64,000 nt of DNA from Candidatus Hydrogenedens sp. Its GTDB lineage: Bacteria; Hydrogenedentota; Hydrogenedentia; Hydrogenedentales; Hydrogenedentaceae. The notes below the pieces were generated by a model. That model ran no database searches. It had not been told where the DNA came from and was given only the letters and a program-made list of their open reading frames with translations. Both the position numbers and the translations under genes were made by a program. Positions 62 to 51,346 of the stretch are shown one piece after another (positions within the stretch are counted from its first letter, which is position 1; the number at the start of each line of letters is the position of its first letter). The stretch lies in NCBI GenBank assembly GCA_049968235.1, contig JBMFRC010000011.1:32001-96000 (forward strand), given 5' to 3'.

Positions 62-1045
62 ATGAAGAAAAAAGGTTTCACACTCATCGAACTGCTGGTC
101 GTTATTGCAATCATTGGCATCCTCGCTGCAATATTGTTACCAGCACTGGCACGGGCACGCGAAGCGGCAAGACGCTCCAGCTGCCAGAACAATTTAAAAC
201 AATGGGGTCTCGTTTTCAAAATGTATTCTAACGAGGCGAAGGGAGAACGGTTTCCTCCCATTCAGGCAGGTGGTTATAAGAATGTAAATGGGCAACTTAA
301 ACCTGTTTTAGATGCAGGACCCAATGTATTTGTTCTGTATCCGGAATATCTGACGGACCCCATGATTATCTTTTGTCCATCGGATGCAGAATTAGGTCAA
401 TCTATTGCCAAAGCACATCTCAATGGGGATGTTAATCAAGATTGGTGTATTGGTTATGCGGATAGCAATGGTGGAAATTGTGCGCGTGCCATTGACGCGA
501 GTTATGGCTATTTAGGTTGGGTTTTAGATAAAGGGAATTGTCCCCCGCAAGACCCCGTATCTACGCTTAGCAGTTTTACCTATTTAGGCACGATTGCGTC
601 ATTCCTTGGTGTAACAATTGACATGAACACCGAAGTTTCTACACAAGTTGGTTCAGCACTGGATTATTTGGTTCAACAAATATTGCCATTATTGAGTGGA
701 AGTAGTATTCCCAATGGAATTCTTCCCATAGCTGACAATGATATACCTGTTCCTAATGGTGTAGGAAACGGTGGTGGTTCTACTGTATATCGTCTTCGTG
801 AAGGTATTGAACGTTTCTTGATCACAGACATTAACAATCCAGCAGCATCAGCACAAGCCCAAAGTTCCGTATGGATTATGTTTGACCAGTTATCAACCAA
901 TCCTGCGGCATACAACCATATTCCCGGAGGTTCAAATGTGTTATACATGGATGGTCATGTGCAGTTCCAGAGATATGGTGAATGTGAACCTGCTCCTGTG
1001 AATAAGCCTATGGCAGTCCTTGTGGGTATTTTGACCTCCAATTAG
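62..1045 (+). CDS. DUF1559 (H-X9-DG) protein with prepilin-type N-terminal cleavage/methylation domain (type IV pilin-like)
   Basis: N-terminus [44 protein letters not shown] is the hallmark class-III signal / DUF1559 head. C-terminus [17 protein letters not shown] matches the H-X9-DG motif. SD-like AAGGAG lies upstream. Confidence 0.85.
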
Positions 1046-8622: not shown

Positions 8623-10893
8623 ATGACGAATATGAATGAGAATTCAAAAGCACATTTTAGAAGAGACGATGTATCGGTCTGTCTCTTCTTATTATTATTC
8701 CCTCTGGTAGTATTGGTAATTGATTTTTCACAAAATCAGATACCTGGGAACTATACTTCTTTATATTATAGCCCACTATGGGTAGAGGGAAAATTAATAA
8801 GCAATGGGAGTTATAACAAAGATACACTTACGGATAGTTCTAAATATCTATCCGATTATTTTTATATGTCTCAAGTAAAAAGTTTATCATCCCTATTGTG
8901 GGATAACACTTCGGGAGGAGGTATTCCTTTTCTTGCGAGATGGGAATCTCGTTGTTTTTCTATTTTTAGCATACCTTTTTATTTCCTACCTTTATGGAAA
9001 TCCATTTACATTAGTATATGGTTAAAAATGATTATTGCGGGCATTGGAGCATATCTACTTGCACTATCCATAGGTTTCTTACCATCTATAGGATTATTCG
9101 TCGCGATACTATTTCAGGTCAGCGGACATTTATTTTTCAATCCCATACATCCTATAACAGATGTCATGGTTTGGTTTCCTTTATATCTATGTTTTGTAAA
9201 TCTTGTTTTTTATCATTCATTTCGTTATTGGGTGTTATTATGTATATCTATTGCTTTTATGTCATTGGGGGGTAGTATTGAAACATTAGTAGTTATTTTT
9301 GCTTTCACTATTTTATATATTCTCGTTGCATATTTCTTTGCTCGACCTGAAAATATCGTTTATTATATCCCCATTTTATTTGTTCTCTTTGCATGGATAA
9401 CCGCATATGGACTTATTTCGTTTCAGATATTCCCTTATATGGAATGGAATAATCACAGAGCAATTATTTCATCTATCTCCTCTATTCCTAATCTGGTTTA
9501 CAAAGATTTATTAGGGCTATTTTTCCCAGCAGGAATCTCTGCAGAACATTCACATCTTATTCCCATTGTTTTGCTATGCTCTCCTGGCATCTGTTGTATT
9601 CTTTTATTGCCATTATGGCTCAGTGCTCGTTCTCTTATTCACTCAGAAATGCGAGGGAAAACAGAGGCGTTTTTTGTTACAAGTTTATTTCTATTTGCAA
9701 TTTTCTGTCTTATTTCTTGTTTGGACTTACAATTGCCCTATTTCAACAATATATCCCTGATTCATGTGGGTTGGTTTCTCATACTTTCAATGGGTTATAT
9801 AATTGGAATGTCTATAGAATCTTGGAATTTGTTTTCTCCTGATGAATGTCGTCAGTGTGTGAAAAAATTATTAGTTTTTGCTGTAATATTCTGGATTTTA
9901 TTATTCATGTCAGTTCTTGCAGGGAAATTATATGGTATCATAGGAACAGAATGTTTCTGGAAAGAATTCGGAATTGCATTCTTCTTTTTACTATTAGTAT
10001 TTCTATACTTGCTTTTTAGTCTTTTTTATCCTTCGCCCCGAAATTCAGGATATATACTAACCCTTATTCTTTTGCTTTCCATTATCGTTATATATCGTCC
10101 CTATCGGATTACAACACCGATAGAATTATTAAAAGTAAATGAAGAATCCATTAATAAATTAAAACAATATGGGACTCGTTTTGCAGGACCGGAACCTTTA
10201 CAGAACTTTGTTTTCTCCATAGAGGGATTAAACATGATGGTTGTCCCACCGGAGAAATGTACCAAAAGATATTCCCTTTTCATGGAAAAGGCATTAGAGG
10301 ACCCAAAACTCTGGTTTAGAACCGGAACTTCTTGTTTCCTTTTTACATCCATTGAAAATTCTAATCCGAATAATTCTTTTTATAAAATAAGGTCCGAATT
10401 AAAATTAGCAGATATGTTCTCATCTGGAATGGCTATATTCAAATCCAACAAGAATGCTCCACGGGCATTTGTAATTTACAATGGAAAAACCACTGATACT
10501 ATAAATCCTGATTTGCTTTCTTCGGATCTTCCTCATCTGGTTGAAAACGCTCTTATTCCCGAAACAACTTCTGTTACAGAACTTCCGGCGGTTGTCGAAG
10601 ATATTTCTCCCACGCATGTCCGTATCAAAGTAGAAAAGACCAAACCCGGTATACTTGTTTTAGCAGATACCTATTATCCGGGATGGTCTGTTAGCGTAGA
10701 TAATATGGTCAAAGATATTATACCTGTTAACATTGCCTTTCGTGGAGTAGAACTCAGCGAAGGGGACCACCAGATTGATTTTGAATATCAATGTAAAGGT
10801 TTCTGGTGGGGTTTAACTATAAGTATTATTGCTGTCATTCTATTTCTTGGGATAATACGGTTTACTTTCCGTTTTTCCAGACAATTAATCTAA
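8623..10893 (+). CDS. YfhO-family polytopic membrane protein (putative glycosyltransferase)
   Basis: About 14 hydrophobic helices. C-terminal soluble domain ends ...YYPGWSVSVDNMV...IAFRGVELSEGDHQIDFEY, characteristic of YfhO C-termini. Confidence 0.55.
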   Translation: MTNMNENSKAHFRRDDVSVCLFLLLFPLVVLVIDFSQNQIPGNYTSLYYSPLWVEGKLISNGSYNKDTLTDSSKYLSDYFYMSQVKSLSSLLWDNTSGGGIPFLARWESRCFSIFSIPFYFLPLWKSIYISIWLKMIIAGIGAYLLALSIGFLPSIGLFVAILFQVSGHLFFNPIHPITDVMVWFPLYLCFVNLVFYHSFRYWVLLCISIAFMSLGGSIETLVVIFAFTILYILVAYFFARPENIVYYIPILFVLFAWITAYGLISFQIFPYMEWNNHRAIISSISSIPNLVYKDLLGLFFPAGISAEHSHLIPIVLLCSPGICCILLLPLWLSARSLIHSEMRGKTEAFFVTSLFLFAIFCLISCLDLQLPYFNNISLIHVGWFLILSMGYIIGMSIESWNLFSPDECRQCVKKLLVFAVIFWILLFMSVLAGKLYGIIGTECFWKEFGIAFFFLLLVFLYLLFSLFYPSPRNSGYILTLILLLSIIVIYRPYRITTPIELLKVNEESINKLKQYGTRFAGPEPLQNFVFSIEGLNMMVVPPEKCTKRYSLFMEKALEDPKLWFRTGTSCFLFTSIENSNPNNSFYKIRSELKLADMFSSGMAIFKSNKNAPRAFVIYNGKTTDTINPDLLSSDLPHLVENALIPETTSVTELPAVVEDISPTHVRIKVEKTKPGILVLADTYYPGWSVSVDNMVKDIIPVNIAFRGVELSEGDHQIDFEYQCKGFWWGLTISIIAVILFLGIIRFTFRFSRQLI

Positions 10894-10898
10894 TATTT

Positions 10899-13505
10899 TC
10901 ATATAACTTTTTCTTCTCTCCTATCCACATTGAAGATTATTTCATTATTATCGTTTGTATCAATGTGGACATGATCACCTTCTCGGATGCCCTGAGAAAG
11001 GATTTGCATTGCCAGAGCATCCACGACCTTACGCTGGATTAGGCGTTTTAATGGTCTTGCTCCAAAAACGGGGTCATAGCCTTCTTCCGCGAGTAGTTCT
11101 TTAGCACTATCACTTACAGAAAGTCTGATTTCTCTATCCGATAATCGATTTATAACCTGATTTAATTGCAAATCAACAATTTGTCGTATCTCTTCTTTCT
11201 TCAACGGTTGGAATAGAATAATATCATCAACACGATTTAAGAATTCAGGACGGAAATGATTATGAAGAATATTTGTTACATACTCAACCTGTTTCTCATA
11301 AGGCATGTTCGTTTTCTGGAATACTTCACTGCCTAAGTTTGATGTCATGATAATAATTGTGTTTCTGAAATCTACTGTTCGACCTTTTCCGTCTGTTAAT
11401 CGTCCATCATCAAGCAATTGTAGAAGGACATTGAATACTTCGGCGTGTGCTTTTTCAATTTCATCCAGAAGAACTACACTATAAGGTTTTCTTCTTACTG
11501 CTTCTGTAAGTTGTCCTCCTTCTTCATATCCGACATAACCGGGAGGTGCACCAATAAGTCGTGCTACGGAATGTTTTTCCATGTATTCGGACATGTCAAT
11601 CCGTATCATTGCCTGTTCATGGTCGAACAATAACTCCGCTAAAGCACGTGCCAGTTCTGTTTTTCCCACTCCTGTGGGTCCAAGGAAAATAAAAGAACCT
11701 ATAGGACGATTGGGGTCTTTCAGTCCGGCTCTTGCTCTACGGACAGCATCGGACACAGCACGGATACCTTCTTTTTGTCCTACTACACGATGAGAGAGTC
11801 GTTCTTCCATATTTATTAATCTTTGCATTTCACCTTCCAATAGACGGTCTACGGGAATTCCTGTCCAACTGGATACTATTTTGGAGATATGTTCATCGGT
11901 AACTTCTTCACTTAGAAAACTTCCGTTCTTTTGTATTTCCTCTAACTCTTTCTTTCTCAATTCTAATTCTTGTCTTAAGTGGTTCAATTCTCCATAGATA
12001 ATTTCTGAGGCTTTTCCTAAATCACCCTGACGCTGTGCAATTTCAGATTGTCGTTTTGCTTCTTCAATGCGGGCATTAATTTCGCGGATTTGGTTTATTA
12101 CCGCTCTTTCTGTTTGCCATTTTGCCTTTTTAGCGTTTAATTCTTCACGAATTTCGGCAATTTCTTTTTCGATGGCTTCTCGTCTTTCGACACCTGACTT
12201 TTCCGTTTCTTTTTTTAATGCCAGATGTTCTATTTCTAATTGACGAATCCTTCTATCAAGCACATCAATCTCGTAAGGCATACTATCAATTTCTATCCGT
12301 AATCGGGAGGCAGCTTCATCAATCAGGTCAATCGCTTTATCCGGCAAAAATCGGTCTGTGATATAACGATGGCTTAAATAAGCAGATGCAACAATGGCAT
12401 CATCACGAATACGAACTCCGTGGTGTACCTCATATTTTTCTTTAAGACCACGGAGAATAGCAATAGTATCCTCAACATCAGGTTCCTCTACAATAATTGG
12501 CTGAAATCTTCTTTCCAATGCAGGGTCTTTTTCAACATGCTTCCGATATTCATCGAGGGTTGTTGCCCCTATACAATGGAGTTCTCCGCGTGCTAAGGCG
12601 GGTTTTAACATGTTGGATGCGTCCATTGCTCCTTCGGCGGAACCCGCACCTATAAGTGTGTGCATCTCATCAATGAACAGGATTATATTCCCTTGAGACT
12701 CCTGGATAGTAGAAAGAACCGCTTTAAGTCGTTCTTCAAATTCACCACGAAACTTACTTCCAGCAATAAGAGCAGATAGATCTAAAGCATGAATTCGTTT
12801 GTTCTTTAATGATTCAGGGATATCTCCCGAAACTATTCGTTGTGCTAAACCTTCTACTATGGCTGTTTTTCCGACACCGGGTTCGCCAATAAGCACCGGG
12901 TTATTTTTTGTTCTTCGGGATAAGACCTGAATCACTCTTCGTATTTCTTCGTCCCTACCAATAACAGGGTCTAATTTTCCTACCCGGGCTAACTGGGTTA
13001 AATCTCTACTAAACCGTTCCAGAGCATCATAGGTAGATTCCGCATTGGGGTCATCTACGCGTTGATTTCCTCTTACTTCTTTCAACGCAGATAATAGGGA
13101 AGTTTCCGTAATACCTAAATTTTTTAAGATTTTTCCTGCATGGTTCGTTTTTTCTCGAACCATACCTAACAGGACATGCTCGGAACTTAAATATTGGTCT
13201 TTTAATGTTTGGGCAAAATTCCATGATGTTTCTAATACCTGTTGAAGTTCATAGGACAGATTGGGATTATGAAGACCCGATGAAATATGTGGAAGTTTCT
13301 CCATCTCTCTATTTATCGAAGCATTTATCTGTCCTTTTGAAAGCCCTAATCTCTGTAGTATTGGAACAACTGCTGAATTTTCTTTCGTGATTAATGATGT
13401 TAGTAAATGTAAGGATGTAATTTCAGGATGTCCTTTATTTGTAGCTAAATCAAGGGCTTCCGATAATGCATCCTGTAAAGGTATAGTTAATCTATCAAAT
13501 CTCAT
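10899..13505 (-). CDS. clpB: ATP-dependent chaperone ClpB
   Basis: Clp N-domain. Two AAA+ modules (GEPGVGKT and GPTGVGKT Walker A motifs). Long middle coiled coil. 868 aa. AGGAGG SD upstream. Confidence 0.95.
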
Positions 13506-13542
13506 AATTTATTACCTCCTTCTTTTTATTTATTTTTTATTA

Positions 13543-13558
13543 GCAATTGGTGTGCCAG
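13543..13558 (-). promoter_or_regulatory. Candidate sigma-54 (-24/-12) promoter TGGCAC-N5-TTGCT upstream of clpB
   Basis: Minus-strand reading: atcTGGCACaccaaTTGCTaat. GG and GC elements have exact consensus spacing. About 30 nt further on is AGGAGG, then the clpB ATG. Confidence 0.55.
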
Positions 13559-13645
13559 ATTAAAAAGTAGATTTTCTGCTCATTTTACATAATCTTTGTT
13601 TCAAAAAGAGATTTGTTTTGTAACACTGTTCCAGTTTAAAACAAA

Positions 13646-13677
13646 AGAGGCAAACCTTTTTGCAAAGATTTGCCTCT
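13646..13677 (-). terminator. Rho-independent terminator hairpin downstream of the outer-membrane protein gene
   Basis: AGAGGCAAA ... TTTGCCTCT forms a 9-bp perfect stem. It is followed on the minus strand by the T-rich CTTTTGTTTT. Confidence 0.55.
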
Positions 13678-13697
13678 AATAATTACGACCTATTAAA

Positions 13698-15263
13698 TTA
13701 GAATTTAAGGACTGTCATCCAGAAGATATATCCTGCATCGTTATTGTCTGAACCGCCAGAGAAATCTGTCCCATTTCCTTGAATATATGCTCCTTGTGCT
13801 AATCCATCACCAACGAATAGGTAATTTCCATAGAGCATAAACCAGAGGTCTTTGGAGTAGTTGTATCTAATCCATGCGGCGATTTCCCAACCTATATCAC
13901 TTTCTCCTTCGTCAGTCCAGAAACTAAGTAATGGTGCTGCGTAGAATTTTCTCCCCAATACCTTAAATGTTTTGGGTGGGTCAAATGGAGAAACAATCCC
14001 ATCATAAGCACCGTGCACATGGACTAAAATTTTATCTGTTGGTTTGACTTCAAACCCTAACTGAACCTGCCAGTAGTTTGATAACCAACCATTATCATTA
14101 ACAGTGGGCAAATAGTTTTTATCGGAGAATAGACGATTAAATGAATGACTTGCTTCAGGTTCATAAAATGGATTTAACCAATCCCAGAAATCAATGCTTC
14201 GGTTGTCATGCCCCTGGAAATATACACCCAGAGTATAGATTCGTGGTGTCCACTTTATATCCTCAAAGGTATAACCCACCGTCAGTTCTGCACCTAAATC
14301 ACCCCAATGGGCACTATCATCACCATAAAGGAAGCCACCTATGGGCTTAAAGGTTGCACCTAAAGAATCTGCGTCACCAAACTGGTATGCCAATTCTAAA
14401 TCATAATCGAAACCAGTGGATTTTCCAAATGCACGGACACCTACTGTATGTAATTTTGTAACGCCATAATCATCACGACCGACTATATCTTCAGCAAATT
14501 CCATAATAGGATTTCCCGTAGTGTCGTGTGGACTTAAGCCATCTCTGAGAAAATACCAGTACGCCGAAACTGTAAGTGGTTTCCATCCTGCATAAGTCCC
14601 ATAAATACCATAGAAATCTATATCCCCATCCTGTTCAATCTGGAATCGGTCATTAACTTTGGATGCGAATGCATCAACGGTCCAATCTCCTTGTTTATAA
14701 GTTAACCGAATGGCGTCATAGGAAGAATATTGTGATGGTGTTAACATGTTGGTTACTAACCAACCTTTGCCCATAATTAAATCCTGGCGACCTACGCGTA
14801 ATGTTAAAGGAGATCCAAACAACTCACGAACTTCTACATAGGCTTGTTCAATTTCTACATCATCATTAGAATTTGCTCGTGTATCTACTCCTGTAACATA
14901 ATCTCGCGAACGGAAATCTTCACCCCAGATATGCCAATCATAAAATTCGATAAAAGCAGATACATTATCCGTAAAATCTGCTTTGAAATTCAGTAACACA
15001 GAAGTTTCATACCTTGTCCAATCGGAACCCTGGTCATCCCATTTGTAAATAGAAGAAATCCGATTTCCTCCGACAGGTCTTTTTGGAATAAACGCAGGTG
15101 GTATCCTTTCCGTTCTCGGTGCAAATGTGTTTATATACCAGCGTCCCCGAATTCTCAATTCTCCCCCAACTGAGACGCTTTGTAATTCAGCAACCGCTAC
15201 GGATGTAATTGTTACACATAGAATAAATACACATATCCCCTTTGCCAAAAGAGATTTGTTCAT
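13698..15263 (-). CDS. Putative outer-membrane beta-barrel protein (porin-like)
   Basis: Signal peptide MNKSLLAKGICVFILCVTITSVAVA. Aromatic-rich alternating pattern. C-terminal ...MTVLKF with terminal Phe is typical of OMP beta-barrels. Confidence 0.45.
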   Translation of the reverse strand: MNKSLLAKGICVFILCVTITSVAVAELQSVSVGGELRIRGRWYINTFAPRTERIPPAFIPKRPVGGNRISSIYKWDDQGSDWTRYETSVLLNFKADFTDNVSAFIEFYDWHIWGEDFRSRDYVTGVDTRANSNDDVEIEQAYVEVRELFGSPLTLRVGRQDLIMGKGWLVTNMLTPSQYSSYDAIRLTYKQGDWTVDAFASKVNDRFQIEQDGDIDFYGIYGTYAGWKPLTVSAYWYFLRDGLSPHDTTGNPIMEFAEDIVGRDDYGVTKLHTVGVRAFGKSTGFDYDLELAYQFGDADSLGATFKPIGGFLYGDDSAHWGDLGAELTVGYTFEDIKWTPRIYTLGVYFQGHDNRSIDFWDWLNPFYEPEASHSFNRLFSDKNYLPTVNDNGWLSNYWQVQLGFEVKPTDKILVHVHGAYDGIVSPFDPPKTFKVLGRKFYAAPLLSFWTDEGESDIGWEIAAWIRYNYSKDLWFMLYGNYLFVGDGLAQGAYIQGNGTDFSGGSDNNDAGYIFWMTVLKF

Positions 15264-15425: not shown

Positions 15426-16011
15426 ATGGTTGCAGTAAATTCTGTTATGTTACCTTTAGGAACTGAAACACCGGATTTTTGTTTAAAAGATATAACAGGC
15501 AAAATGGTACAAAGAGATAATTTTCGAGGACAAAAAGGTCTTCTTGTTATGTTTATATGTAATCATTGTCCATTTGTAAAACATATTCAAAATGAATTGG
15601 TAAAACTGACCAATGAATACCAGTCTAAAGGAATAGGCATTGTCGGAATAAATTCTAATAATACAGAAAAGTATCCCGAAGACTCTCTGGAAATGATGAA
15701 GGAGGAAGTTGTAAAAGCAGGATATACTTTCCCCTATTTGTATGATGAAACACAAGAAGTAGCAAAAAAATACAAAGCAGCATGTACGCCTGATTTTTTT
15801 TTTATTTGATGGAAACTTTAAATTGGTATATCGGGGTCAGTTCGATGATTCACGCCCGGGCAATAACAAACCCGTAGATGGCAAAGATTTGAGAAATGCA
15901 TTAGATTGTTTACTGGAAGGAAAACCTTTACCGGAACACCAAAAACCCAGTATGGGATGCAATATTAAATGGAAACCGGGAAATGAACCCGAATACTTTT
16001 TGAATCGGTAA
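15426..16011 (+). pseudogene. Thioredoxin-like (AhpC/TSA-type thioredoxin family) gene interrupted by a +1 frameshift in a T10 homopolymer
   Basis: The 15426..15809 ORF carries the FICNHCPFVKH redox motif and ends ...TPDFFFI*. The 15823..16011 ORF continues VYRGQFDDSRPGNNKPVDG...CNIKW. Removing one T from the run at 15794..15803 yields the contiguous TPDFFLFDGNFKLVYRGQFDDSRP. Confidence 0.6.
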
Positions 16012-16123
16012 TTTATTAATCCTTTACCAAAATTTTAAAAACTCATAGTTGATATTTTTATAATTGCTTCCTTTTTATAGTATATTTTATTAGTTAACAC
16101 CTTAAAATTAAAAGGAAGCTTTT

Positions 16124-22455: not shown

Positions 22456-25400
22456 TTACTTAAGCCCACCACAATAACCATCCTCTTCTTCAGGACATAT
22501 TCTGTAACCACCCATGTTAAAGAACTGTATTAACCGCAATAATTCATTAAGGCCAATACGCCAATCTTGTGGAGCATAATCGCTGGTATGCGGTGGACAA
22601 TTGTGGAATGAATCATTTCTTCCAGGGGCATATCCATCTTCTGTCGAACCTTCACAATGATACCCAAAGGAGTTAAATAGTTGAATAACGCGAAGTAGTT
22701 CTCCTATTTCAAATTTCCAATTAAAGTTTCTATCCGCAGAATGTATTCCATGTGGGATTTCTCCTTCTGGCGTGCCTTCCGCAACACCTTCGGGTATGCC
22801 CTCTGGTGTCCCTTCTACAATACCTTCTGGCTGTCCCTCGGGTATGCCTTCTGGCGTGCCTTCCACAACACCTTCGGGTATGCCCTCTGGGGTTCCTTCA
22901 ACGATACCTTCCGGTGTCCCTTCTACAACACCTTCTGGCTGTCCCTCGAGGACACCTTCGGCTGTACCTTCTAAGACACCTTCCGGTGTCCCTTCCGCAA
23001 CGCCTTCGGGTTGTCCTTCCGGTATCCCTTCTGCAACACCTTCCGGTTGTCCTTCGGGTGTGCCTTCAACGACGCCTTCTGGGGTACCTTCTACGATACC
23101 CTCCGGTTGTCCTTCGGGTATGCCTTCGGGAGAGCCTTCTACTGTTCCTTCACCTTCAGGAGAAGGTAAGAAATCGGAGCAGTCAAGAACGCCATTATCA
23201 TTCTTATCTGCAACATCAAACTGGTCTTGTGTAATTTTTGAACTCAAAGCACGCACTTCCGTTAGAGTTAATTCATTATCACCATTCGAATCGAGTTTGG
23301 GTAGCAAATTAAATATGGAACTTACTGCTGTAAATTCTTCAAAAGTTAATTGATTATCCCTGTTCTTATCTACCAGATACCATACGCCAGCAATAATTAT
23401 ATCACTCCAACCTGTCAGGGATTTAAATTCGCTTTTTGATAACAAACCATCGCCATTGGTATCTCCAAATAGGAGCATAATCAGGAAATAATGTTCAATA
23501 TCATCAATATCACAGGTAGGAGGTTCCCCTTCTATAACACCTTCCGGGATGCCTTCAGGAGTACCCTCAACTATACCTTCACCTTCAGGTATACCTTCAG
23601 GAATACCCTCTTGTGTCCCCTCTGGTGTACCTTCCGGGGTGCCTTCCGGGGTGCCTTCAGGTGTTCCCTCTGGTGTGCCTTCCGGGGTACCTTCAACTAC
23701 ACCTTCGCCTTCAGGCAATACAAAGTCATTGCAATCAAGAACACCGTTTTGATTTAAATCCACTGCATTTAACTGGTCCATAGTTATATTGGAATTCAGG
23801 TTTTGCAATTCTATAAGCGTAAGGGCACCATCGTTATTTCCATCTAATCCTGGCAACAGGTTATACAACCACTCCACCTTAGAGAACTCTTCAAGAGATA
23901 ACTGATTATCTCCATTCGTATCAACGGCACTCCATAATAATAGGACAGTATCACTCCAACCTGTAATGGCTTTAAGTTCTTCTTTAGATAATAATCCATT
24001 CCCATCTGTGTCGCCGAACATAATCAAGATATAGTAGTAATGTGTAATATCATCAATATCACAGGGTGGTTCACCTTCAAAAGTCCCCGGACAAGGTGGA
24101 CAACCACCACCGTTCAGGGTCTGATTAATATCCAGTGCAGAAAGAATAAAGGTATCTATATCCGTAGGTGCAAATACATAGGCTTTATACTCACCTATAT
24201 TACAGACTTCATCAAAATCCGGGTCACCGGCGGAAGCAAGGTATTGTCCTGCGGTTAAATCATATCCGTTTAATGTGAATGTGCCCCAGAACATTAATGT
24301 ATCAATCACATTCACAATAGAATTGATAAACGATTGTTCACCTGTAGTAAGGACCCCAGCAACAACATTGATAAATGTTGTGTTCGAGAAAATCGTGCTT
24401 AATAATGGAATAGAATCCCATTTGCTTTGAGCCACAACACGATTATTCATATATGCGTTTTTCACACAGCAGAAAATAGGCAATTCCGGATGTGCAAGAA
24501 TATAATCTAACAATCTTGCCTGTGCAACATCATACATACCATTACCATCTATATCCGCTGTATCGGGATTTACGCTAAGGAAAGAAGCAATGCCATATAA
24601 ACTGCGTAATGCTGTTTCAAACCCCGCATTTACTGCAGTTTGATTGCAGTTATCCCAGCACCATTCAGCATAACAAGATTCTGGAAGTGGACCCATAATA
24701 TCGATGCAGTCGAGATAGCCATTGCCATCAATATCATGTTGATTAAATTGGTCTTGTGTAATTTTGGAACTCAATTGCCTTATTTCAGTTAAAGTTACCT
24801 GATTGTCGCCATTCGAATCGAGGTTTGCAGGTAAAAGTCCACCCAAACGATTGCTGGCTACAAATTCGTCAAAGGACATAAAACCATCACCGTTTTTATC
24901 AATTATCCACCATCCTAAATCTAAAAGGAACCCTGTTACAAAGGCTTTTAATTCATTTTTTGTTAACTTACCATCACCATTTGTATCACCAAACATTATT
25001 AACAATGCGAAATAGTTTTCATCAGAACGCATATTACAGGGAGGTGGACCTCCACCTTCGCCTTCACCTTCAACGGTTCCTTCTGCCCCACATGCGGGAC
25101 AACCACCATAATAATCTGTAATACTACTATTAATAGCCGCATTCACAAATGCATCAAAGTCCGCAGGTGTGTTCACAACCCATGCTTTGTATTCACCAAT
25201 ATTGCAGACACCGTCCAAATCCGCATCACCTTTGGCATTCAGATAAACAATATTTGAGCCATCCAATTCTAATAAGGAAAGGTCGGGTAAGTTAGGAATT
25301 ATCCAATTCAACGCTGATAGAATAGTATTAATAATTGCTGTGTTCCCCATTGTTGCCAGTGCTGCGAAGAAGGTTTTCATACCTTCAAGGTCTGGTGGCG

Positions 25401-25824
25401 TTCCTAAATAGGATGGCCAGCCTGTCTGTATGGCAAGTGCTAACGCTTCCACTTTCAAACGATTGCCTGCATACGCCCAATATATACAATTACGAGTGGG
25501 TATCCCACCAATTAATGAAAAACTTCCCATAATTGTATCGAATAAACGTGCCTGGGCAGTATCTTTCATTCCATCAAAATCTAAATCAAGATTATCTGGA
25601 TTTCCTCCAATTAATGGGATTTTCGCATATAATTCCCGCATTGAATTTTCAAAACTTTCAGTATATACAGGACCGGGTATTAAATTATTGCAATTAGGAA
25701 TATTGCAATAATCCACTTCTGCATCTGTTTGTGCAACTGATGAAGAAGAAAAAACAAAACATACACTCATGATAAGGAACAAAGTTCCTATGTATATTTT
25801 GCTTGTATTAATCTTAATGTTCAT
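22456..25824 (-). CDS. Secreted multi-module Ca-binding protein: 2x ~220-aa domain, 3x calmodulin-like four-EF-hand modules, (xPEG)n linkers, duplicated C-terminal motif
   Basis: Signal peptide. Canonical EF-hand loops (DTNGDGKLTKNE, DKNGDGFMSFDE, DSNGDNQVTLTE, DIDGNGYLDC) repeat in three ~150-aa modules. Long (G/V/I/Q/T)PEG runs. C-terminal tandem ELLRVIQLFNSFGYHC / ELLRLIQFFNMGGYRIC. Confidence 0.6.
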   Translation of the reverse strand: MNIKINTSKIYIGTLFLIMSVCFVFSSSSVAQTDAEVDYCNIPNCNNLIPGPVYTESFENSMRELYAKIPLIGGNPDNLDLDFDGMKDTAQARLFDTIMGSFSLIGGIPTRNCIYWAYAGNRLKVEALALAIQTGWPSYLGTPPDLEGMKTFFAALATMGNTAIINTILSALNWIIPNLPDLSLLELDGSNIVYLNAKGDADLDGVCNIGEYKAWVVNTPADFDAFVNAAINSSITDYYGGCPACGAEGTVEGEGEGGGPPPCNMRSDENYFALLIMFGDTNGDGKLTKNELKAFVTGFLLDLGWWIIDKNGDGFMSFDEFVASNRLGGLLPANLDSNGDNQVTLTEIRQLSSKITQDQFNQHDIDGNGYLDCIDIMGPLPESCYAEWCWDNCNQTAVNAGFETALRSLYGIASFLSVNPDTADIDGNGMYDVAQARLLDYILAHPELPIFCCVKNAYMNNRVVAQSKWDSIPLLSTIFSNTTFINVVAGVLTTGEQSFINSIVNVIDTLMFWGTFTLNGYDLTAGQYLASAGDPDFDEVCNIGEYKAYVFAPTDIDTFILSALDINQTLNGGGCPPCPGTFEGEPPCDIDDITHYYYILIMFGDTDGNGLLSKEELKAITGWSDTVLLLWSAVDTNGDNQLSLEEFSKVEWLYNLLPGLDGNNDGALTLIELQNLNSNITMDQLNAVDLNQNGVLDCNDFVLPEGEGVVEGTPEGTPEGTPEGTPEGTPEGTPEGTQEGIPEGIPEGEGIVEGTPEGIPEGVIEGEPPTCDIDDIEHYFLIMLLFGDTNGDGLLSKSEFKSLTGWSDIIIAGVWYLVDKNRDNQLTFEEFTAVSSIFNLLPKLDSNGDNELTLTEVRALSSKITQDQFDVADKNDNGVLDCSDFLPSPEGEGTVEGSPEGIPEGQPEGIVEGTPEGVVEGTPEGQPEGVAEGIPEGQPEGVAEGTPEGVLEGTAEGVLEGQPEGVVEGTPEGIVEGTPEGIPEGVVEGTPEGIPEGQPEGIVEGTPEGIPEGVAEGTPEGEIPHGIHSADRNFNWKFEIGELLRVIQLFNSFGYHCEGSTEDGYAPGRNDSFHNCPPHTSDYAPQDWRIGLNELLRLIQFFNMGGYRICPEEEDGYCGGLK
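22760..23165 (-). repeat. 12-bp periodic in-frame tandem repeat encoding (xPEG)n, ~34 units
   Basis: Near-perfect 12-nt periodicity (ccttc[t/c]gg[n][t/g][t/g][n]c) is visible directly. It creates spurious long antisense ORFs. Confidence 0.8.
23530..23715 (-). repeat. Second 12-bp periodic (xPEG)n coding repeat block
   Basis: Same 12-nt unit encoding EGTPEGTPEGTPEG... Confidence 0.8.
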
Positions 25825-26373: not shown

Positions 26374-26510
26374 TTCAAAACTCCTCATATATATATTATA
26401 ACATATAAACACATAAAATAAATATCAAATTTGATGTTTTTTTTGTTAAAATATTTTTGGAGTTTTTTATTTATTTTTTAAGAAGTATTTTTAATTATGG
26501 GATTTTGAGA

Positions 26511-28031
26511 ATGAATTTAGAAGCAAGGCAATTTTTGCAACAAAGGCAGGAATTACAATTATCGTTGTTCCAACAGCAATCATTACAAATACTACAAATG
26601 TCGACCATCGAATTAGAACAATACATTGTACAGGAGGCTGAAAGTAACCCATATCTTGAAATAGAGTATAAATCATTAGATAGCGAAGTAGAATCAAATC
26701 TCCCTCTTGAAGATTCAGAATTATCTTCAACAGGTATAAGCAAGGATCATCTCTTTGATAATGATACTACTTATACTCAAGATGGAACCATTGATATGAA
26801 GTCTGAGGAGCAATATGCAGATATAACAGAAGAAAAAGATGATATGGCAGAATTATGGGAGCATGAATACAATAGAACAAATACAAATACGGACCTGAGT
26901 TATAACCCGGACATAGATGAATGGGTAGAAAGTAAATTTAATAACATTAAAAGTCAGGAGACCCTTAGAAGCCACTTGATGAAACAATTATATATTGAGT
27001 TTAATGACCCCCAAGAAATCCAGATAGGTGAAAGTATTATAGCTAGTATTGACTCTCGCGGATATTTTGTTGGAAATATAGAAGATATATCTAAAGAATT
27101 TGATGTTACACCTGAAAAGGTCGAAAAAGTTTTGAAAAGAATACAGGGATTTGACCCTTCCGGCGTAGGAGCAAAAGATGTAAAAGAATGTTTGCTAATT
27201 CAGATTAATCAAATATATCCTGACAATATCCTTCTGAAAAAATTGGTAGAAGAATATTTTGATGAACTTACCCATCGACAGATTCCCAAAATATCTCGGG
27301 GATTGAAAATTGAGCCTTATCAGGTAGAAGCATTGATTGACTTATTAAAAACCTTAAATTTGTTTCCTGGACATTTGTTTCCGGAAGAACCAAATAATAT
27401 CATCCCTGATGTTATTGTAAAATTTACCGAAGATGATGGACTTGCTATTGAAATACATGATAAGCGTCTTCCCGAAATAAAATATGTGGAACCTATAAAA
27501 AAAGAACAGATAAAGATATTACCCAAAGAAGAGAAAGAGCAGATAAAAAAATATAAAGATTCGGCAATTCGATTAATAAAATGCCTTGAACTGAGAAAAA
27601 GTACCTTATATAAGGTTGCAAGAGAGATAGCAATTTTTCAAGAAGAGTTTATGCGTAAAGGAGTTGATTATTTAAAACCATTAACTTATAAAACCATTGC
27701 AGACCGTATTAATATACATGAATCAACAATCTCCCGTTGTATTGCGGGTAAATACATGGCTACCCCACAAGGAATCTTTGAATTCCGTTATTTCTTTTCA
27801 GGGGGCATCAAAACAAGTGAAGGTGAAAATGAAAAATCATCGCGTACAGTTCAGAGCATCATCAAGAGAATTATTGAGGAAGAAGACAAAACAAAGCCTT
27901 TAAGTGACCAGCAAATCGCTGAATTCATTCTAAAAAAGGAAGGAATAAAAATTGCACGGAGAACTGTATCAAAATATCGGGAGGCAATGAATATTCCTAA
28001 TGCTTTTGAACGGAAAGTTTACAAGAAGTAA
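26511..28031 (+). CDS. rpoN: RNA polymerase sigma-54 factor
   Basis: Gln/Leu-rich region I. LNLFPG core-binding region. HTH. RpoN box ARRTVSKYRE near the C-terminus. Confidence 0.9.
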   Translation: MNLEARQFLQQRQELQLSLFQQQSLQILQMSTIELEQYIVQEAESNPYLEIEYKSLDSEVESNLPLEDSELSSTGISKDHLFDNDTTYTQDGTIDMKSEEQYADITEEKDDMAELWEHEYNRTNTNTDLSYNPDIDEWVESKFNNIKSQETLRSHLMKQLYIEFNDPQEIQIGESIIASIDSRGYFVGNIEDISKEFDVTPEKVEKVLKRIQGFDPSGVGAKDVKECLLIQINQIYPDNILLKKLVEEYFDELTHRQIPKISRGLKIEPYQVEALIDLLKTLNLFPGHLFPEEPNNIIPDVIVKFTEDDGLAIEIHDKRLPEIKYVEPIKKEQIKILPKEEKEQIKKYKDSAIRLIKCLELRKSTLYKVAREIAIFQEEFMRKGVDYLKPLTYKTIADRINIHESTISRCIAGKYMATPQGIFEFRYFFSGGIKTSEGENEKSSRTVQSIIKRIIEEEDKTKPLSDQQIAEFILKKEGIKIARRTVSKYREAMNIPNAFERKVYKK

Positions 28032-32916: not shown

Positions 32917-33008
32917 GTTTTTATACCAAATTTTCATGCTTATGATCTTTTTATGTTAAAATATATTTGGTATTATTTTATCTAATACATAAAGCAAGGA
33001 TATTTTGG

Positions 33009-36000
33009 ATGAAAGATTTATCTCTAATTTATAAGATGATAGGTAAAAAAAATTCGTATTCTTTTCTTTTTTCATTATTAATTTTTTTCTTTTTATTTAT
33101 TTGTTCGGGATTTTCAGAAGTAAATACGGGGCAAAAAACCGTAGAAAAACAGGGGATATTAAACATTACTCAAAGTCTCTCACAAAATCCGGATTGTGCT
33201 ATAGATTCTTTTCTTGATGTAACTGTTGAGTTAACATACACAGGAGAAGACCCCCTACTCACATTAGGTCTAAGGGAAATAGTGCCAGAAGGACTTGTTT
33301 ACGAAGAGATTATAAGTGGTTCCGCACCTCCACTCCAACCTTCAAGAGGGGCTTTTGGAACCTTAGAATTTGGTTGGATTTTTGTTCCCTCTTTTCCAGC
33401 CTCTTTTACGTTTCGTTTAAGATTTGCACAACCTATTAGTGGTAATCAATTTATTACAGGAATTGGTATTTTTGCATCATTTGGAGACCCTCAGGAAACT
33501 GAACCTGTCATTTCCTACTTTGACTGTCCAACTATTGAAGGTCAAACCGAAGGAGAAGGGATAGTCGAAGGTGAGGGGCAAATTGAAGGAGAGGGAATAA
33601 TCGAAGGAGAAGGGAGCATAGAAACAGTATATTTAAATATATCATCAAAATCAGGAGATATATATGCTCCCGAACAAGAAATGGAATTTGAAGTTAATAT
33701 TTCGTATTTAAATCCTCTGGAAATCACTGCCTTAGGAGCAACGGTATTTTTGCCTGAGTATTGGCAATTTGTTAAATTTACTGCGGGTTCTCCTCCGCCT
33801 ATTTATTATTTCGATACGGAAACAGGGAAAGCAGAATTTGCATGGATATTTCTTCCATCTGGAGGAATTACTTTTTCCTTTTCTGTCCTTGTTTCGCCTG
33901 AAACAGAGGGTATTCAGGAAATATCCGGTTATGGGATATATAGAACAACGGGAGAACCAATCACCACAACTATTTCGAAAATATATTTAACACCTGTCCC
34001 CAAACCAGACCTTACTTTGCTTTCGGGAATAGTTACACCGTCAAACCCTTTTTCCCAGGGGATTATATCAATTAACTACACGGCAAAGAATACAGGTTTT
34101 GTAAATATTGACAACAAAAGTTGGAGTGATTGTTTTTACTTATCTAATGATGAATGGCTTGATGAAACAGATGTTGAAATAACCTGTATCACCAATAATA
34201 CTTCTGTTGCGGTTGGCGGACAATATTCAAATTCATTAAAAGCAAAATTACCTTCTTCTGCATTTGGAAATATGTATCTTCTTGCTTACCTAAATAAGAC
34301 AAAGACTATTTATGAAGAATCAAGGGACAATAATGTTGGGGTTATAGGAATTATTCAAATACAAGCCAGAGAATATGATTTTCGACTAACTACAGGTATA
34401 ACAGAAGAGGATGTAGGCACACCTATTCCTATCAAAATATATGCGTATAATCCTGAAACCCTACAACCTGCTGTAAATAAACAAATCGTTTTGCAAATTG
34501 CTCATCGAGGATTCTCAAAAACTTACACTTTCACTACTGACCAGAATGGGGAAATAAATTATACATATTTCCCTATATCCAACACAGAAGGAGGGATATA
34601 TAGCATATCTATCAGAGACCCAAGGGAAGAAGATTATCCTATTACTGAAGAAGTCTTATTGCGAGGACTTGCGATAACCCCCTCCCACTATTTTCTTGAG
34701 GTTATACCTAACAAAACATATACCATTCCCTTTAATATTATCAATTTAGGGGATACGGAAGAAAAGCAATTATCATTCATGATAACAGGAATACCTCCTG
34801 ATTGGAATTATGATTATGTTATTCCTTCCTCAATACAGGGACAATCTAAAGAAACTTGTAAACTTATCCTTTATTCCAAGCCAACAACACAGAATAGCTT
34901 CCCTATAATGCTTAATTTACAAAGTAATTCAAAAACTCTTGCAACCGCTCAATATGATATTCTACCCAAACCCTATCAAACGGTAATAACATCTATTCCT
35001 GAAGAGGTTTCTTTACCTTTACTTCTCGAGAAAACTCAGTTTTATACGATAGAACTAAAAAATCAAGGAGGAAAAGATTCAGGACCCGCTCGAATACAAA
35101 TCGAACCTGAAAACCCGAATATTCATTTAGTTACTCCAAACACAGTTTACAATATTCCAGCAGGTTCAAGTTATTTCGTTTCATTACAGGTAGGAATCCC
35201 ATTTATAGAAATTCCAGAACCTATAGAGACATCCCTATCTATTCGTTTTGAATCGGGATTAAATGTGAGCATTCCTATAAAAGTTATTGAGGATACGACA
35301 AAAAGTTTAACAATAAATGTATTTAACAAATATACGAATGAAGCTATCCATAATGCTTCCGTTTCTATCGTTAGTGAAACAGGTATTCTTTCTACTTCTC
35401 AAATCAATAATGATGGAATAGTTGAAGTTAATAATCTACCTGAACCTCCTTTTTCTATTGTAATACTAAGTGAGGGATTTGAAAGCCAGACCTATTTTAT
35501 ATCAAATTTAAAGAGCAATCACGAAATGATTGATATTTATTTAGAACCGTTCTTATCTAAACAATTCTGGTCTTACACAATCGATAATAATCAGAAGCTA
35601 TATCTACTATCAGTATCCAATAGTTCTGCTCTTGAACCAGACAACACTTCTGTATTAACAATATCGCCAGGTTATATTCCTTTTATTACAACAGAAATAT
35701 CTCATAATTCTACACTTTCCATTACCAATCAAGGGATTAAACCTTTATATGATGTTTATTTATATCCATTCCAAACTGACTTATTAAATATACAGTATCC
35801 TGTTCAATACTTAGGAACAATAGAACCGCAATCTTCTGTTAATATTCCTGTCCTTTCACAGATATCAGAATCATTTGATTTTGATTCCTCGTGTTCTTCA
35901 TCGATCTTGACGGGTATCATTTTTTCGGAACAAACTAACAATTCGGATATATCCCAATTTATGGTAATGCCTTTATGGAATACAGAAGTTTTATGTCCGG

Positions 36001-39000
36001 ATTTTACTCCTATCTATGGGGATTTTTATCAAATAAATAGAATAAATCCTGATACAACCATTGTTCCAGTAAACATTCAAATATCCCTGCCAGATAATCA
36101 ATCCAATCAAAATGTACCTATTCTTTCCTACGCAACCGGGCAAATGACCTTAGCCACAGGAGAAATTCTACCCATTGTAATGAAAACTGCTACTCGGACA
36201 GGGCTTTATGAGCAAATAGATATTCAATGGCAAATTCATAATGCGGAAAACAATGAGGATATAACTTCTCTATTCCAGATATTTGAATTATCTAATTTTG
36301 AGAAAACAGATTTGTTTAATAATATAGAGAAAAAACAATGGTTACTTTATCCCTTGCATGAATTTTGGGAAAACCCGATATCGGAAATTCGATTATTCGC
36401 ACAAATTCATATTATTTCATTACTGGGGACATGGGATATATCCTCTCCCCCGCTACCTTTGAAGATTCTTTCACAACCTATACTTATGGAACATATATTT
36501 GCTCCTCAAATTCACGAATTGCAAATTTCTTCCAGTGCGGATAACTCAGGAGAAACGGTTCTACCTTTAGCGATTCTTATTTCTCCAACAGATAATATTA
36601 ATCTCCCTATAAAATTTGAATGGGAGAATATTCAATATTTACATGAAACAGGAAATATTGCTTCCTTATCCTTAATCCAAACGGCAATAAATGGAATAGG
36701 AACGCAATATCAACAAATCACATATAACAACATTTCTTTGCAGAAAGAAAAAACCAACTCTTATTTGTGGTACTTTTTATCTCCACCTCTTTCAAATAAA
36801 TGGCAGTTAGTTTCTCGATGGACTTACAAAGACAATAAGGGTACTCTTTTACCCCTTATTACCAGGGAACAATATCATGATTTACTGCATACTATTGAAG
36901 TTACAGGAGAAAATGCTTCAATAACAACTGGATTACTTAGTAATGATGATAATGATGAACAGAGAATACCTGATATTATCTATTTGCCGGATGGAAAAAC
37001 CTTAAGTATATCTACACCCTCCAATCCTATCTGGGTGTCTATAAATAATTCCCACAGAGAATATGGTATTGTCTATAGTTCTTCACAACAGTCTGATTAT
37101 GTTTATTTGCATTCCAATTTTCCGGAGGATGTTCCTGAAGATGCCGTTATCCTCCGTATCCTTAGAAGCGATTCAACTGTTATTCCATCTGCCAATTATT
37201 GGGTTAGTAAATCTATGAATATGAGTCATAAACATGACCCTGTAAAACCTTCCTTACATTTTGTTGATAAATCGGGCTACAACTCATATATTGTGGAATT
37301 TCAATCCGAATCGTTAGAGAATAAGCCTCCTATCGCTAATGCAGGAGAGGACATAACAAATGTATATCGTCCCTCATCTATAACTCTTGACGGGTCTGGG
37401 TCCTATGACCCGAATGGAGACCGAATTAATTATTCATGGCGTCTTATCAGCAAACCTCTTGAGAGTTTTGAATATCTAAGAAACGCAGATACAGCAAATC
37501 CCATTTTAATTCCAGACCTTCCCGGAACTTATATTGCACAACTTATTGTTTCTGATGGTTTTGCTCAAAGTGAACCCGATACGGTTGTTATTGAAGTTGT
37601 TAATCGTTTACCGGAGATTGTAATTAATGCTCAACAAAAAGCAAGACCTCGCGATATCGTTGTCTTAGATGCATCATCCGTAGTAGACCCTGATGGAGAT
37701 GAAATAGAATTTTTATGGAAACTGGCAACCAAACCCGATGGTAGTCGTGTATCACTACAGGGAGTTTTTAATAATACAATAACAATTACACCGGATGTAT
37801 TGGGTCAATATGAATTTATCTTATACATATCAGATGGCTTTGACAACTCATTTGCCCATTGGAAATTAGATGTTTACAACCATCTCCCTGAAATTGCAAT
37901 CGGGTTTCCACCGACTGTTTATTTAAATACAAATGTATCTATTTCTGCACGGGATACTTTTGATATTGACAACGACCCATTATCTTATCAATGGAGATTG
38001 GTTTCTGCACCGGTGGGAAGCAATACAATACTTAGTTCTTTTACTCAGCCCGAAACCAGTTTTGTATCCGATAAAAGAGGCACTTATACATTAAAACTTG
38101 AAGTTTTTGATACTTATGAAAAAACAGACAAGACAATTTCTTTACAATGTGTTAATAGGAAACCTCAAACAATTGTAAATCCCAGTGCTATTGAAGTTCC
38201 ACATGGTAAAACGGTTATTTTCGATGCTACGCAAAGTTCAGATTTAGATAATGACCCACTCACTTTTAATTGGGGACTTCTTTCCCGTCCTATATTAAGT
38301 AGTGCGGAAATTTATTTAATTCAAAACAATATAGCTGGGTTAAAAACAGACGCACCTGGAAAATATAGTGTAACCTTACAAATAAACGATGGATTTGAAT
38401 CGGGTGAGATAGTAATATCTCAAATCACAGCAACCAATAATCCTCCAGAGATACAATGTCCGGAACAACCTATTCCAGGTTCAGTAGGACAACCTTTAAC
38501 AATACTATTACCCGAAATAAATGACCCGGAACAGGACCCTATCACATATTCATGGGAAATTATTTCAAAACCAGTAGAAAGTATGATAGGTCTCATTAAC
38601 TCTGTAGAGCCTGCATTTACATTCACACCTGACCGTAAAGGAACTTATGAAATTCAAGTTATAATATCCGACGCATGGGGAGGTAATACATCTTGTGTTA
38701 TTACAACAGAAATTACCAATCAACGCCCTGTGGCGGTAATTCAATCCGAGACGCAGAGTTTTATAAATACTCCTGTATCTCTATCAGCAGAAAGTAGTTA
38801 TGACCCGGATGGGGATGTTATAAAAGATTATCAATGGACAATTATCAGCAAACCACAGGGAAGTTTTGCTCAATTGTCCAACCCTACAGGTGTTACAACA
38901 CAACTGATTCCTGACAAACACGGCAATTATCAGGTGCAACTTCAAATTTATGATGGTAATATGTGGAGTAATCCTGCCATAACAACAATCACCACGGAAA

Positions 39001-49289: not shown

Positions 49290-49889
49290 ATGATAAATAA
49301 GGATATTAGAACTTCCAGTAATGAAATACAAGACAAAGAACTTGTAGAACGAATAAAAAAAGGTAATGAAGAAGCCTTTGATATTTTGATAAAAAGATAT
49401 TATAACATGGTTTATTTCACCTGTATAAAAAAATTATATAATCCGGATATTTCCAGAGAGGCAACACAGGATATTTTTATAAAAGTATGGAAAAGTATAA
49501 ATACATGTGTAGATGGGACTTATTTTGTTTCCTGGCTTATGACGATAGCCAGGAATCATTGTATAGACATTTTGCGGAAAGAAAGAAACCGCAAAGAACG
49601 CGAGATTTCTATAGAATCCTTCGAAAATTCAGATAATATCTCCCCGTCTGCTTTTGAACATTCAAGTATAGACAAAAGTCTCGAATTTGAATACTTGAAC
49701 ATTCTCGTTGAACAACTTCCGGAACCCCAACGTATTGTATTCCAAAAAAGATTGGAAGGTTGGAGCGTTCAAGAAATAGCGGATAACTTAAATTGTCCAT
49801 TAGGCACTGTTTTGAGCAGGTTTTCTTTAGCCAAAAGAAAAATATATGAACAGATGAAAAAGGCAAATATAACATTTAAGGAACTTTAA
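49290..49889 (+). CDS. ECF-type RNA polymerase sigma-70 factor
   Basis: Region 2 (FIKVWKSI...WLMTIARNHCIDILR) and region 4 HTH (WSVQEIADNLNCPLGTVLSRFSLAKRKI). 199 aa. Confidence 0.85.
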   Translation: MINKDIRTSSNEIQDKELVERIKKGNEEAFDILIKRYYNMVYFTCIKKLYNPDISREATQDIFIKVWKSINTCVDGTYFVSWLMTIARNHCIDILRKERNRKEREISIESFENSDNISPSAFEHSSIDKSLEFEYLNILVEQLPEPQRIVFQKRLEGWSVQEIADNLNCPLGTVLSRFSLAKRKIYEQMKKANITFKEL

Positions 49890-50437: not shown

Positions 50438-51346
50438 CTATTCAAGATTTATAACAAAAGTTCTGTCTTCCTGAAGTCCCTGCACCACTTCTCTCCCTGG
50501 AATTAAAGATTGCCGTGCAAAATTTATATTAGATAACCCAAAAGTATGAACTTCTATTTTATGAGTATGTACATAAAATTCACGAAATTCCATAGGATAT
50601 TCACACAAAGCAGATGTAGTTACCTGAACAATATTTTTAGAATGGATAACATAATTCATGTGCATATGCCCTGAGAGAATAATACAGGGACGAGGATGTT
50701 TATACAACAATTCCAGTATTTCTTCTGCATTTGATAAAATACCACTATCTTTATATCCTTTAAATTTACATCTATCTGGAATAGGAAATAACGGGGTATG
50801 AATAGAAACAACTATAGGATAATTTTTATGTTCTTTTAATTCTTTTTCCAACCACTGCAAGTGTTCCTTTGATAAAACCCATTGAAAGCCCTTGTGACTC
50901 TCTTTCATATTTATATGATGTTCCGGGTCCCGAACTGCATGAATTGTAGAGTCGTTCCACATCCAGCTGACTTCTAACATGCAAAATCGCAAATTTTTAT
51001 GAGTAAATGCGTAAGTAAACTCACCCTCAGGAAGTTCTGTATCAAAATATTTCAATTCACGTTCGCGAATTTGATGAGTACTTAAATCGTGATTTCCACC
51101 CAAAAGATACACGGGTATCCTGAAAGAATTAAACAAATCCTTTATTTTTTTGGGGACAACATCATCTTCACAAGAACAAATATCACCTGTTATGATGATA
51201 AATTCCGGAGAATAAACAAGGACATCATTCAAAAAACACTGGAATATATCAAAGGATTTTGTAGTTAGAATACGATTATTCCACATTCCATCCGGGTCAT
51301 ACCCTAAATGTAAATCCGAACATTGAATAAACGCCCATGGTTTCAT
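50438..51346 (-). CDS. Calcineurin-like metallophosphoesterase
   Basis: Blocks GDICSCED, GGNHD and SGHMHMN. Confidence 0.75.
   Translation of the reverse strand: MKPWAFIQCSDLHLGYDPDGMWNNRILTTKSFDIFQCFLNDVLVYSPEFIIITGDICSCEDDVVPKKIKDLFNSFRIPVYLLGGNHDLSTHQIRERELKYFDTELPEGEFTYAFTHKNLRFCMLEVSWMWNDSTIHAVRDPEHHINMKESHKGFQWVLSKEHLQWLEKELKEHKNYPIVVSIHTPLFPIPDRCKFKGYKDSGILSNAEEILELLYKHPRPCIILSGHMHMNYVIHSKNIVQVTTSALCEYPMEFREFYVHTHKIEVHTFGLSNINFARQSLIPGREVVQGLQEDRTFVINLE

Follow-up and report, generated by a model that had tools for sequence, protein, structure and literature searches.

In Escherichia coli the transcription of clpB is sigma-32 dependent, and the sigma-54 stress promoters known from enterobacteria include those of pspA, with its activator PspF, and of ibpB, at which the activator binds 80-130 nt upstream. 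Experiments in Myxococcus xanthus have shown that the heat-shock gene lonD is under the positive control of the NtrC-type pair HsfB/HsfA (Ueki & Inouye, J Biol Chem 277:6170, cited in PMC3892784). Moreover, a position-specific scoring matrix (PSSM) survey of 16 phyla (Carrera-Reyna, Cruz-Flores & Merino 2025, PMC12316311) reports that predicted sigma-54 promoters are enriched before chaperone and protease genes (GroEL, GroES, DnaK, DnaJ, GrpE, IbpA, HSP90, Lon and COG0542, the ClpA/ClpB family) in Flavobacteriia, Bacteroidia and Planctomycetia; its text names neither Hydrogenedentota nor clpB. We analysed a 64,000-nucleotide stretch of Candidatus Hydrogenedens sp. (assembly GCA_049968235.1, contig JBMFRC010000011.1, positions 32,001 to 96,000; hereafter the window), in which a clpB gene read on the minus strand is preceded by an element of the -24/-12 type recognised by RpoN, the sigma-54 factor. 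A literature search combining Hydrogenedentes with sigma returned nothing on regulation in this phylum. An earlier note on this DNA had considered RpoN control of a disaggregase unusual, which holds relative to model organisms and has to be dropped as a general statement, given that sigma-54 promoters of COG0542 genes are already predicted in Bacteroidota and Planctomycetota (PMC12316311).

The minus strand of 13501-13560 reads atcTGGCACaccaaTTGCTaataaaaaataaataaaaagaAGGAGGtaataaattATG, letter for letter as quoted in the earlier note. It contains the 16-mer TGGCACACCAATTGCT (13542-13557, minus strand, running from 13557 to 13542), which agrees with TGGCAC-N5-TTGCW at 16/16 specified positions and carries its GG (13556-13555) and GC (13544-13543) exactly 10 nt apart. 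The element is intergenic, on the sense strand, and lies 37 nt 5' of the clpB ATG (13505-13503), with the Shine-Dalgarno sequence AGGAGG (13515-13520, minus strand) in between, 9 nt before the start codon. Thus, the exact RpoN consensus, the correct GG/GC spacing and the sensible distance to Shine-Dalgarno sequence and start codon, all claimed before, are borne out. The earlier note had also seen no other intergenic TGGCAC-N5-TTGC, and an exhaustive scan of both strands of the window returned a single exact occurrence in total, with 0.02 expected from shuffles and a match in 2 of 100 shuffled sequences. When the window was scanned with weights and GG-N10-GC was required, TGGCACACCAATTGCT had the best score and was the sole top-scoring intergenic site. 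A weaker intergenic sigma-54-like site, TGGTACGGGATTGGCT, in which GGC replaces TGC at -12, was observed at 51501-51516 (minus strand), 155 nt 5' of a Metallophos phosphoesterase gene (50438-51346).

From the canonical sigma-54 geometry, which places the start about 12 nt 3' of the GC, we infer that clpB transcription begins near A13531 (13530-13532, minus strand), giving a predicted 5' untranslated region (5'UTR) of about 26 nt. This 26-nt segment is predicted to be unstructured (minimum free energy -1.6 kcal/mol, z = 0.4), and the Rfam search of the clpB leader gave no match near the gathering score. Control by a leader RNA of known type or by an RNA thermometer was therefore rejected; the latter is not indicated, because the predicted 5'UTR is unstructured and no Rfam family was found.

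The evidence that carries the promoter assignment comes from orthologous leaders. Ten distinct Hydrogenedentota clpB loci were compared, namely the window and nine further clpB neighbourhoods obtained via exact-protein lookups, spanning 94% to 66% ClpB identity and 35-64% GC. Each of them has GG-N10-GC at a distance of 52-70 nt on the 5' side of the clpB ATG: besides TGGCACACCAATTGCT, the leaders carry TGGCATATCAATTGCT (L081), TGGCATATTAATTGCT (L083), TGGCACAATGGTTGCT (L085), TGGCATATATATTGCT (L086), TGGCATGTATATTGCT (L087), GGGCATGGCATTTGCA (L088), TGGTACGGCTTTTGCC (L089), TGGTACGGCGATTGCC (L210) and CGGCACGGGCCTTGCC (L211). Positions G2, G3, A5, T12, T13, G14 and C15 are invariant in 10/10 elements and the 5-nt spacer varies freely, so that the pattern bears the signature of sigma-54 contacts, as distinct from a general inertia of the sequence. 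For the eight of ten leaders tested, the shuffle P of so good a site was at most 0.013 per leader, mostly below 0.001. That a chance match was simply retained because the sampled genomes are closely related might be argued from the six of ten loci that share the order outer-membrane protein gene, clpB and YfhO gene, together with alignable AT-rich leaders. However, the element persists in L088, L089, L210 and L211, where clpB has wholly different neighbours, the GC content is 57-64% and the leaders are otherwise unalignable. Since, in addition, only 0.02 occurrences are expected in the window and the contact bases are fixed next to a variable spacer, we regard this explanation as hardly credible.

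As a control, we took the 300 nt upstream of 79 clpB loci of other phyla, found among the matches listed and with 54-61% ClpB identity. Comparable sites occurred in 2 of these 79 loci, which equals the antisense-strand count; the clpB genes of one Bacteroidota and two Phycisphaerae in this set had no site or only a weak one. Because the control stands at antisense background, the element, as a predicted promoter, is a trait of this phylum and not of clpB leaders in general. The putative promoter arrangement is ancestral to Hydrogenedentota. The conservation of contact bases and position in all ten loci, against a background level elsewhere, is the most stringent test that sequence alone allows and supports the promoter reading proposed in the earlier note; we consider it probable, with good confidence, that TGGCACACCAATTGCT is the functional sigma-54 promoter of clpB. 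Two minor observations concern these leaders. In the Phycisphaerales clpB locus L060 a weak site, CGGCGCGCCGCTTGCA (2945-2960), precedes the ATG by 56 nt; it would fit the published Planctomycetota trend, but does not rise above the background of the control. In the GC-richer L088, L210 and L211, ATCAATT or ATCAAGG stands exactly 9 nt 5' of the -24 element and may be an IHF-like or UP-like element; no such ATCAA motif was seen in the AT-rich clpB leaders.

The same invariant positions bear on a different explanation, according to which some unrelated DNA-binding repressor or activator (resembling HrcA/CIRCE or CtsR, or novel) has its operator in the 16-mer, whose likeness to a sigma-54 site is then only apparent. 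Repressor control is common for heat-shock genes, and TGGCAC and TTGCTAA faintly recall the halves TTAGCAC and GTGCTAA of CIRCE (controlling inverted repeat of chaperone expression). Nevertheless, the 16-mer is no inverted repeat, its half-sites are spaced by about 9 nt, not 17, and the bases kept in the ten leaders are precisely the sigma-54 contacts GG, A and TTGC around a free 5-nt spacer, in a genome that encodes RpoN, the factor reading this pattern. The window contains no CIRCE (TTAGCACTC-N9-GAGTGCTAA) even if up to 3 mismatches are allowed, and CtsR boxes are missing around clpB: GGTCAAA-NAN-GGTCAAA was matched just twice, each time with 3 mismatches and a long way from clpB, which is less than chance predicts. 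An operator with such a resemblance is thus, in our opinion, very improbable.

The clpB leader of about 130 nt contains another conserved element, T(T/G)GAAAC(A). In the window the proximal box, TTTTTGAAACA (13597-13607, minus strand), has a TTGAAACA core that starts 47 nt 5' of the TGG and is a candidate site, centred near -70, for a bacterial enhancer-binding protein (bEBP). A distal region, CTGGAACAgTGTTACAAAAC (13615-13634, minus strand), is an imperfect dyad about 77 nt 5' of the TGG and a candidate second activator site; distal TTGAAACA-like boxes also occur 76-90 nt upstream in L083, L086 and L087. The distance from box start to GG is 47 nt in the window and in L081, 46 in L083, 57 in L085 and L087, 59 in L086, 58 in L089 and L211, and 60 in L210, which makes two classes, 46-48 and 57-60 nt, one helical turn apart. 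A forward box with at most 1 mismatch occupies the phased position in 8/10 leaders, as compared with 0.15 in shuffles (maximum 2). Within about 150 kb of Hydrogenedentota flanks, a sigma-54 site and phased boxes come together only in clpB leaders. The finding thus goes beyond the 60-nt span described above, in that the conserved, helically phased candidate box at 13597-13607 belongs with the predicted promoter. The fixed helical phase, the presence of two copies and the tolerance of inversion suggest sites of an enhancer-binding protein, unlike an independent -35 hexamer, and we lean, with modest confidence, towards the boxes being the enhancer of the clpB promoter.

The box also provides an argument for another promoter type, in which TTGAAA serves as the -35 hexamer of a sigma-70 or sigma-32 promoter and the -24/-12 look-alike is a non-productive or modulatory RpoN site. 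TTGAAA fits the -35 of sigma-70 (TTGACA) and of sigma-32 (CTTGAAA), clpB is a sigma-32 target in proteobacteria, and the GC-rich L211 contains CTTGAAT-N13-CCCGATAC, with 5/7 matches to the sigma-32 -10. However, with TTGACA-N16-18-TATAAT and at least 9/12 matches as the criterion, no sigma-70 promoter was found in 13400-13800 of the window (1.6 expected), and none in 8/10 leaders. L083 and L085 have three hits between them, whose positions are not conserved, which do not exceed the number expected from shuffles and which leave the box unused as a -35. With the sigma-32 model CTTGAAA-N11-16-CCCCATNT, the -10 after the box reaches only 2-3/7 in the window and seven other leaders, and 5/7 only in L211; L081 and L088 are without a CTTGAAA-like -35. 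The sequence 17 nt 3' of the box is not conserved. Furthermore, the box keeps helical phase with GG-N10-GC, which would be needless for an independent promoter, and occurs twice per leader and, in L088, in reverse orientation, as befits a binding site and not a -35. A sigma-70 or sigma-32 promoter, named in the earlier note as a competing explanation of the transcript, is thus not supported in the clpB leader, where CtsR and HrcA signals are likewise absent, and we judge this alternative improbable.

The sigma-54 reading requires the corresponding factor, and the window encodes it. The rpoN gene at 26457-28031 (plus strand), with a probable start ATG at 26511, was already placed in the window by the earlier note and specifies a complete RpoN with a Gln/Leu-rich region I (AID in Pfam), core-binding domain (CBD), DNA-binding domain (DBD) and the RpoN box ARRTVSKYR. 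The note had also seen no enhancer-binding protein in the window, which the GAFTGA motif scan and Pfam both confirm, and had proposed looking for bEBP genes: NtrC-type bEBPs turned out to be abundant and conserved in Hydrogenedentota, where canonical sigma-54 promoters also occur. A perfect site, TGGCACGGGTCTTGCT (Hydrogenedentota contig L212, 16885-16900, minus strand), stands 5' of an operon of a 227-aa gene, a histidine kinase and an NtrC-type bEBP; from this perfect site it follows that the phylum uses the canonical sigma-54 consensus, and the operon is probably an autoregulated two-component sigma-54 system.

As for a specific activator, in L211 an NtrC-type response regulator (REC, Sigma54_activat, AAA_lid_14, HTH_8) is encoded two genes 3' of clpB. 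Its orthologs are 61-67% identical over more than 100 Hydrogenedentota clusters, a conservation approximately that of ClpB. In L211, L212, L213 and L214 the regulator is preceded by a small Cys-rich, zinc-ribbon-like protein of 111-122 aa, with 56% identity between L211 and L212 and no Pfam match. The pair of Cys-rich protein and orphan REC-AAA+-HTH_8 activator occupies 10612-12410 in L211, immediately 3' of clpB, and 7429-9374 in L212.

According to the mechanism that we propose, clpB would be transcribed as a single gene by the RpoN holoenzyme from 13542-13557 (minus strand), with a start near A13531. At any sigma-54 promoter the closed complex depends on an AAA+ enhancer-binding protein, and the same should hold here. 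This protein would most likely bind the conserved T(T/G)GAAAC(A) boxes, the centres of which lie some 70-80 and 100-115 nt 5' of the start, on a fixed helix face relative to the promoter, and transcription would be expected to depend on the activator so bound. The inducing signal may be heat or proteotoxic stress; that such a signal acts on clpB within a wider regulon is a tentative suggestion.

The question of a regulon was addressed by scanning metagenomes for the box together with the promoter. The scan yielded at least 120 stretches, the known Hydrogenedentota contigs not being among the matches listed; 119 of them were unrelated or due to chance, and L120, a metagenome contig of 35% GC, was the sole informative one among the matches listed. 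The same pattern searched in viral contigs returned nothing relevant. In L120 (870-1462) the inverted 17-mers TGTTTCAAAATAAAACA and TGTTTTATTTTGAAACA, which contain the box, are followed by 40 nt, by TGGCATAAAACTTGCT, by a Shine-Dalgarno sequence and by an Hsp20 gene; here 48 nt separate box and GG, and the layout is that of the clpB leaders. This arrangement hints that the putative enhancer/promoter pair serves more than clpB. A strict dyad TGTTT-N7-AAACA was also tried as a description of the box and rejected, since by eye it suits L120, L086 and L087, and not the window, L089 or L210. Taking all of this to its limit, one might imagine that in this phylum sigma-54, and not sigma-32, HrcA or CtsR, governs the response to proteotoxic stress; that T(T/G)GAAAC(A), sometimes in the form of the TGTTT-N7-AAACA dyad, would be a new enhancer read by the conserved orphan REC-AAA+-HTH_8 activator, with the Cys-rich partner as stress sensor; and that a phage would have copied enhancer and promoter for its own small heat-shock protein in L120. 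As a whole, we offer this picture as speculation that is unlikely to hold in full.

Several points weigh against these interpretations. The ten loci are related by descent, hence 10/10 does not represent ten independent events, and the start, the expression and the RpoN dependence of clpB are sequence predictions for an uncultivated phylum. The TTGAAA core of the box resembles the -35 hexamer of sigma-32 and sigma-70, and two leaders are exceptions as regards the forward box: at 1 mismatch or less, L088 has no forward box, showing instead two reversed ones at 88 and 66 nt, and L211 has none either, carrying TGGAACAA. GAFTGA-type activators encoded in the 64-kb window amount to zero. In four other genomes neither a kinase gene nor clpB nor a chaperone gene adjoins the L211-type regulator; because its orthologs are unlinked to these genes there, the clpB-adjacent regulator is only a candidate for the clpB activator. 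With regard to the regulon, clpB is the only Hydrogenedentota chaperone gene examined, so that this reading is backed by no second one. L120 itself looks phage-like, with neighbouring open reading frames (ORFs) that match phage families weakly, and the closest relatives of its Hsp20, according to the homolog search, are about 50% identical and belong to mixed phyla, which gives no ground for placing L120 in Hydrogenedentota.

Compared with the described systems, the Hydrogenedentota arrangement shares with the Bacteroidota and Planctomycetota survey a phylum-level -24/-12 trend outside Proteobacteria, in both cases deduced from sequence, and it differs from the surveyed passages in the presence of an upstream activator-type motif in the leaders (PMC12316311). 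The likeness to Myxococcus HsfA-lonD consists in an AAA+ proteostasis gene with a sigma-54 promoter, predicted here and experimental for lonD; the candidate activator of L211 also has the REC + AAA+ + HTH_8 architecture of HsfA, to which it is likened on this basis. By contrast, the target is clpB and not lon, and the phylum is another. A kinase, HsfB, adjoins HsfA, while the candidate from Hydrogenedentota is an orphan regulator paired with a gene for a small Cys-rich protein. As with enterobacterial pspA and ibpB, sigma-54 would serve in the response to damaged proteins or membranes; the Hydrogenedentota boxes have no sequence relationship to the systems of PspF and IbpB. Classical control by sigma-32, HrcA/CIRCE or CtsR has the same target, clpB, and presumably the same purpose, induction by proteotoxic stress; unlike there, no sigma-32, CIRCE or CtsR cis elements are supported in the leader.

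The predicted pattern of sigma-54 control of chaperones is therefore extended to Hydrogenedentota and is not a first of its kind, because the Bacteroidota and Planctomycetota predictions and HsfA-lonD precede it. Nothing is overturned, sigma-54 promoters, HsfA-lonD and predicted sites before Clp-family genes being already on record. What is new beyond the PSSM surveys is the conservation across orthologous leaders, the phased candidate enhancer motif and the candidate activator family, and a third phylum-level lineage is added to the idea that sigma-54 has taken over chaperone control outside Proteobacteria and Firmicutes. The prediction, which covers promoter, start site, candidate enhancer motif and candidate activator of a core stress gene, is among the first concrete and testable regulatory predictions for this phylum, which is uncultivated and frequently met in anaerobic digesters and sediments.

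The gene served by the predicted promoter, clpB (10899-13505, minus strand), encodes a full-length ClpB of 868 aa with Clp_N, two AAA modules, AAA_lid_9 and ClpB_D2-small according to Pfam. Its closest homologs are 94%, 89% and 88% identical and are labelled Candidatus Hydrogenedens or Hydrogenedentes, and a lookup of the exact protein found no record; the GC content of the window is 34-40%. The gene is convergent with a YfhO-like gene (8623-10893). On its 5' side, the gene for an Alginate_exp-type outer-membrane protein ends in an intrinsic terminator (13636-13677, minus strand) with a 14-pair stem, located in 13677-13646, and a T tract, where 0.1 such hairpins are expected; the clpB leaders of relatives show equivalent hairpins. 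Given this terminator after the upstream gene and the convergence with the next one, clpB is monocistronic, and its promoter has to be sought within about 130 nt. Pfam detected no other chaperone gene in the 64-kb window. A plasmid origin of the window was considered and discarded, there being no megablast match.

Further observations in the window were made in passing. Beside the outer-membrane protein gene lies an AhpC/TSA-type thiol peroxidase gene (15426-16040, plus strand) that is interrupted: its frame ends after ...ACTPDFFFI (127 aa), the L083 ortholog running to 194 aa, and the break is probably a T-run frameshift, whether through a sequencing error or in a true pseudogene. An N-terminal-methylation/DUF1559 pseudopilin-like protein, of a type common in Planctomycetota, is encoded at 62-1045 (plus strand), a 1122-aa protein with many EF-hand motifs at 22456-25824 (minus strand), and a giant ORF of 2619 aa spans 32967-40826 (plus strand). 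Finally, an extracytoplasmic function (ECF) sigma factor is encoded at 49290-49889 (plus strand) and is followed by a 168-aa ORF.

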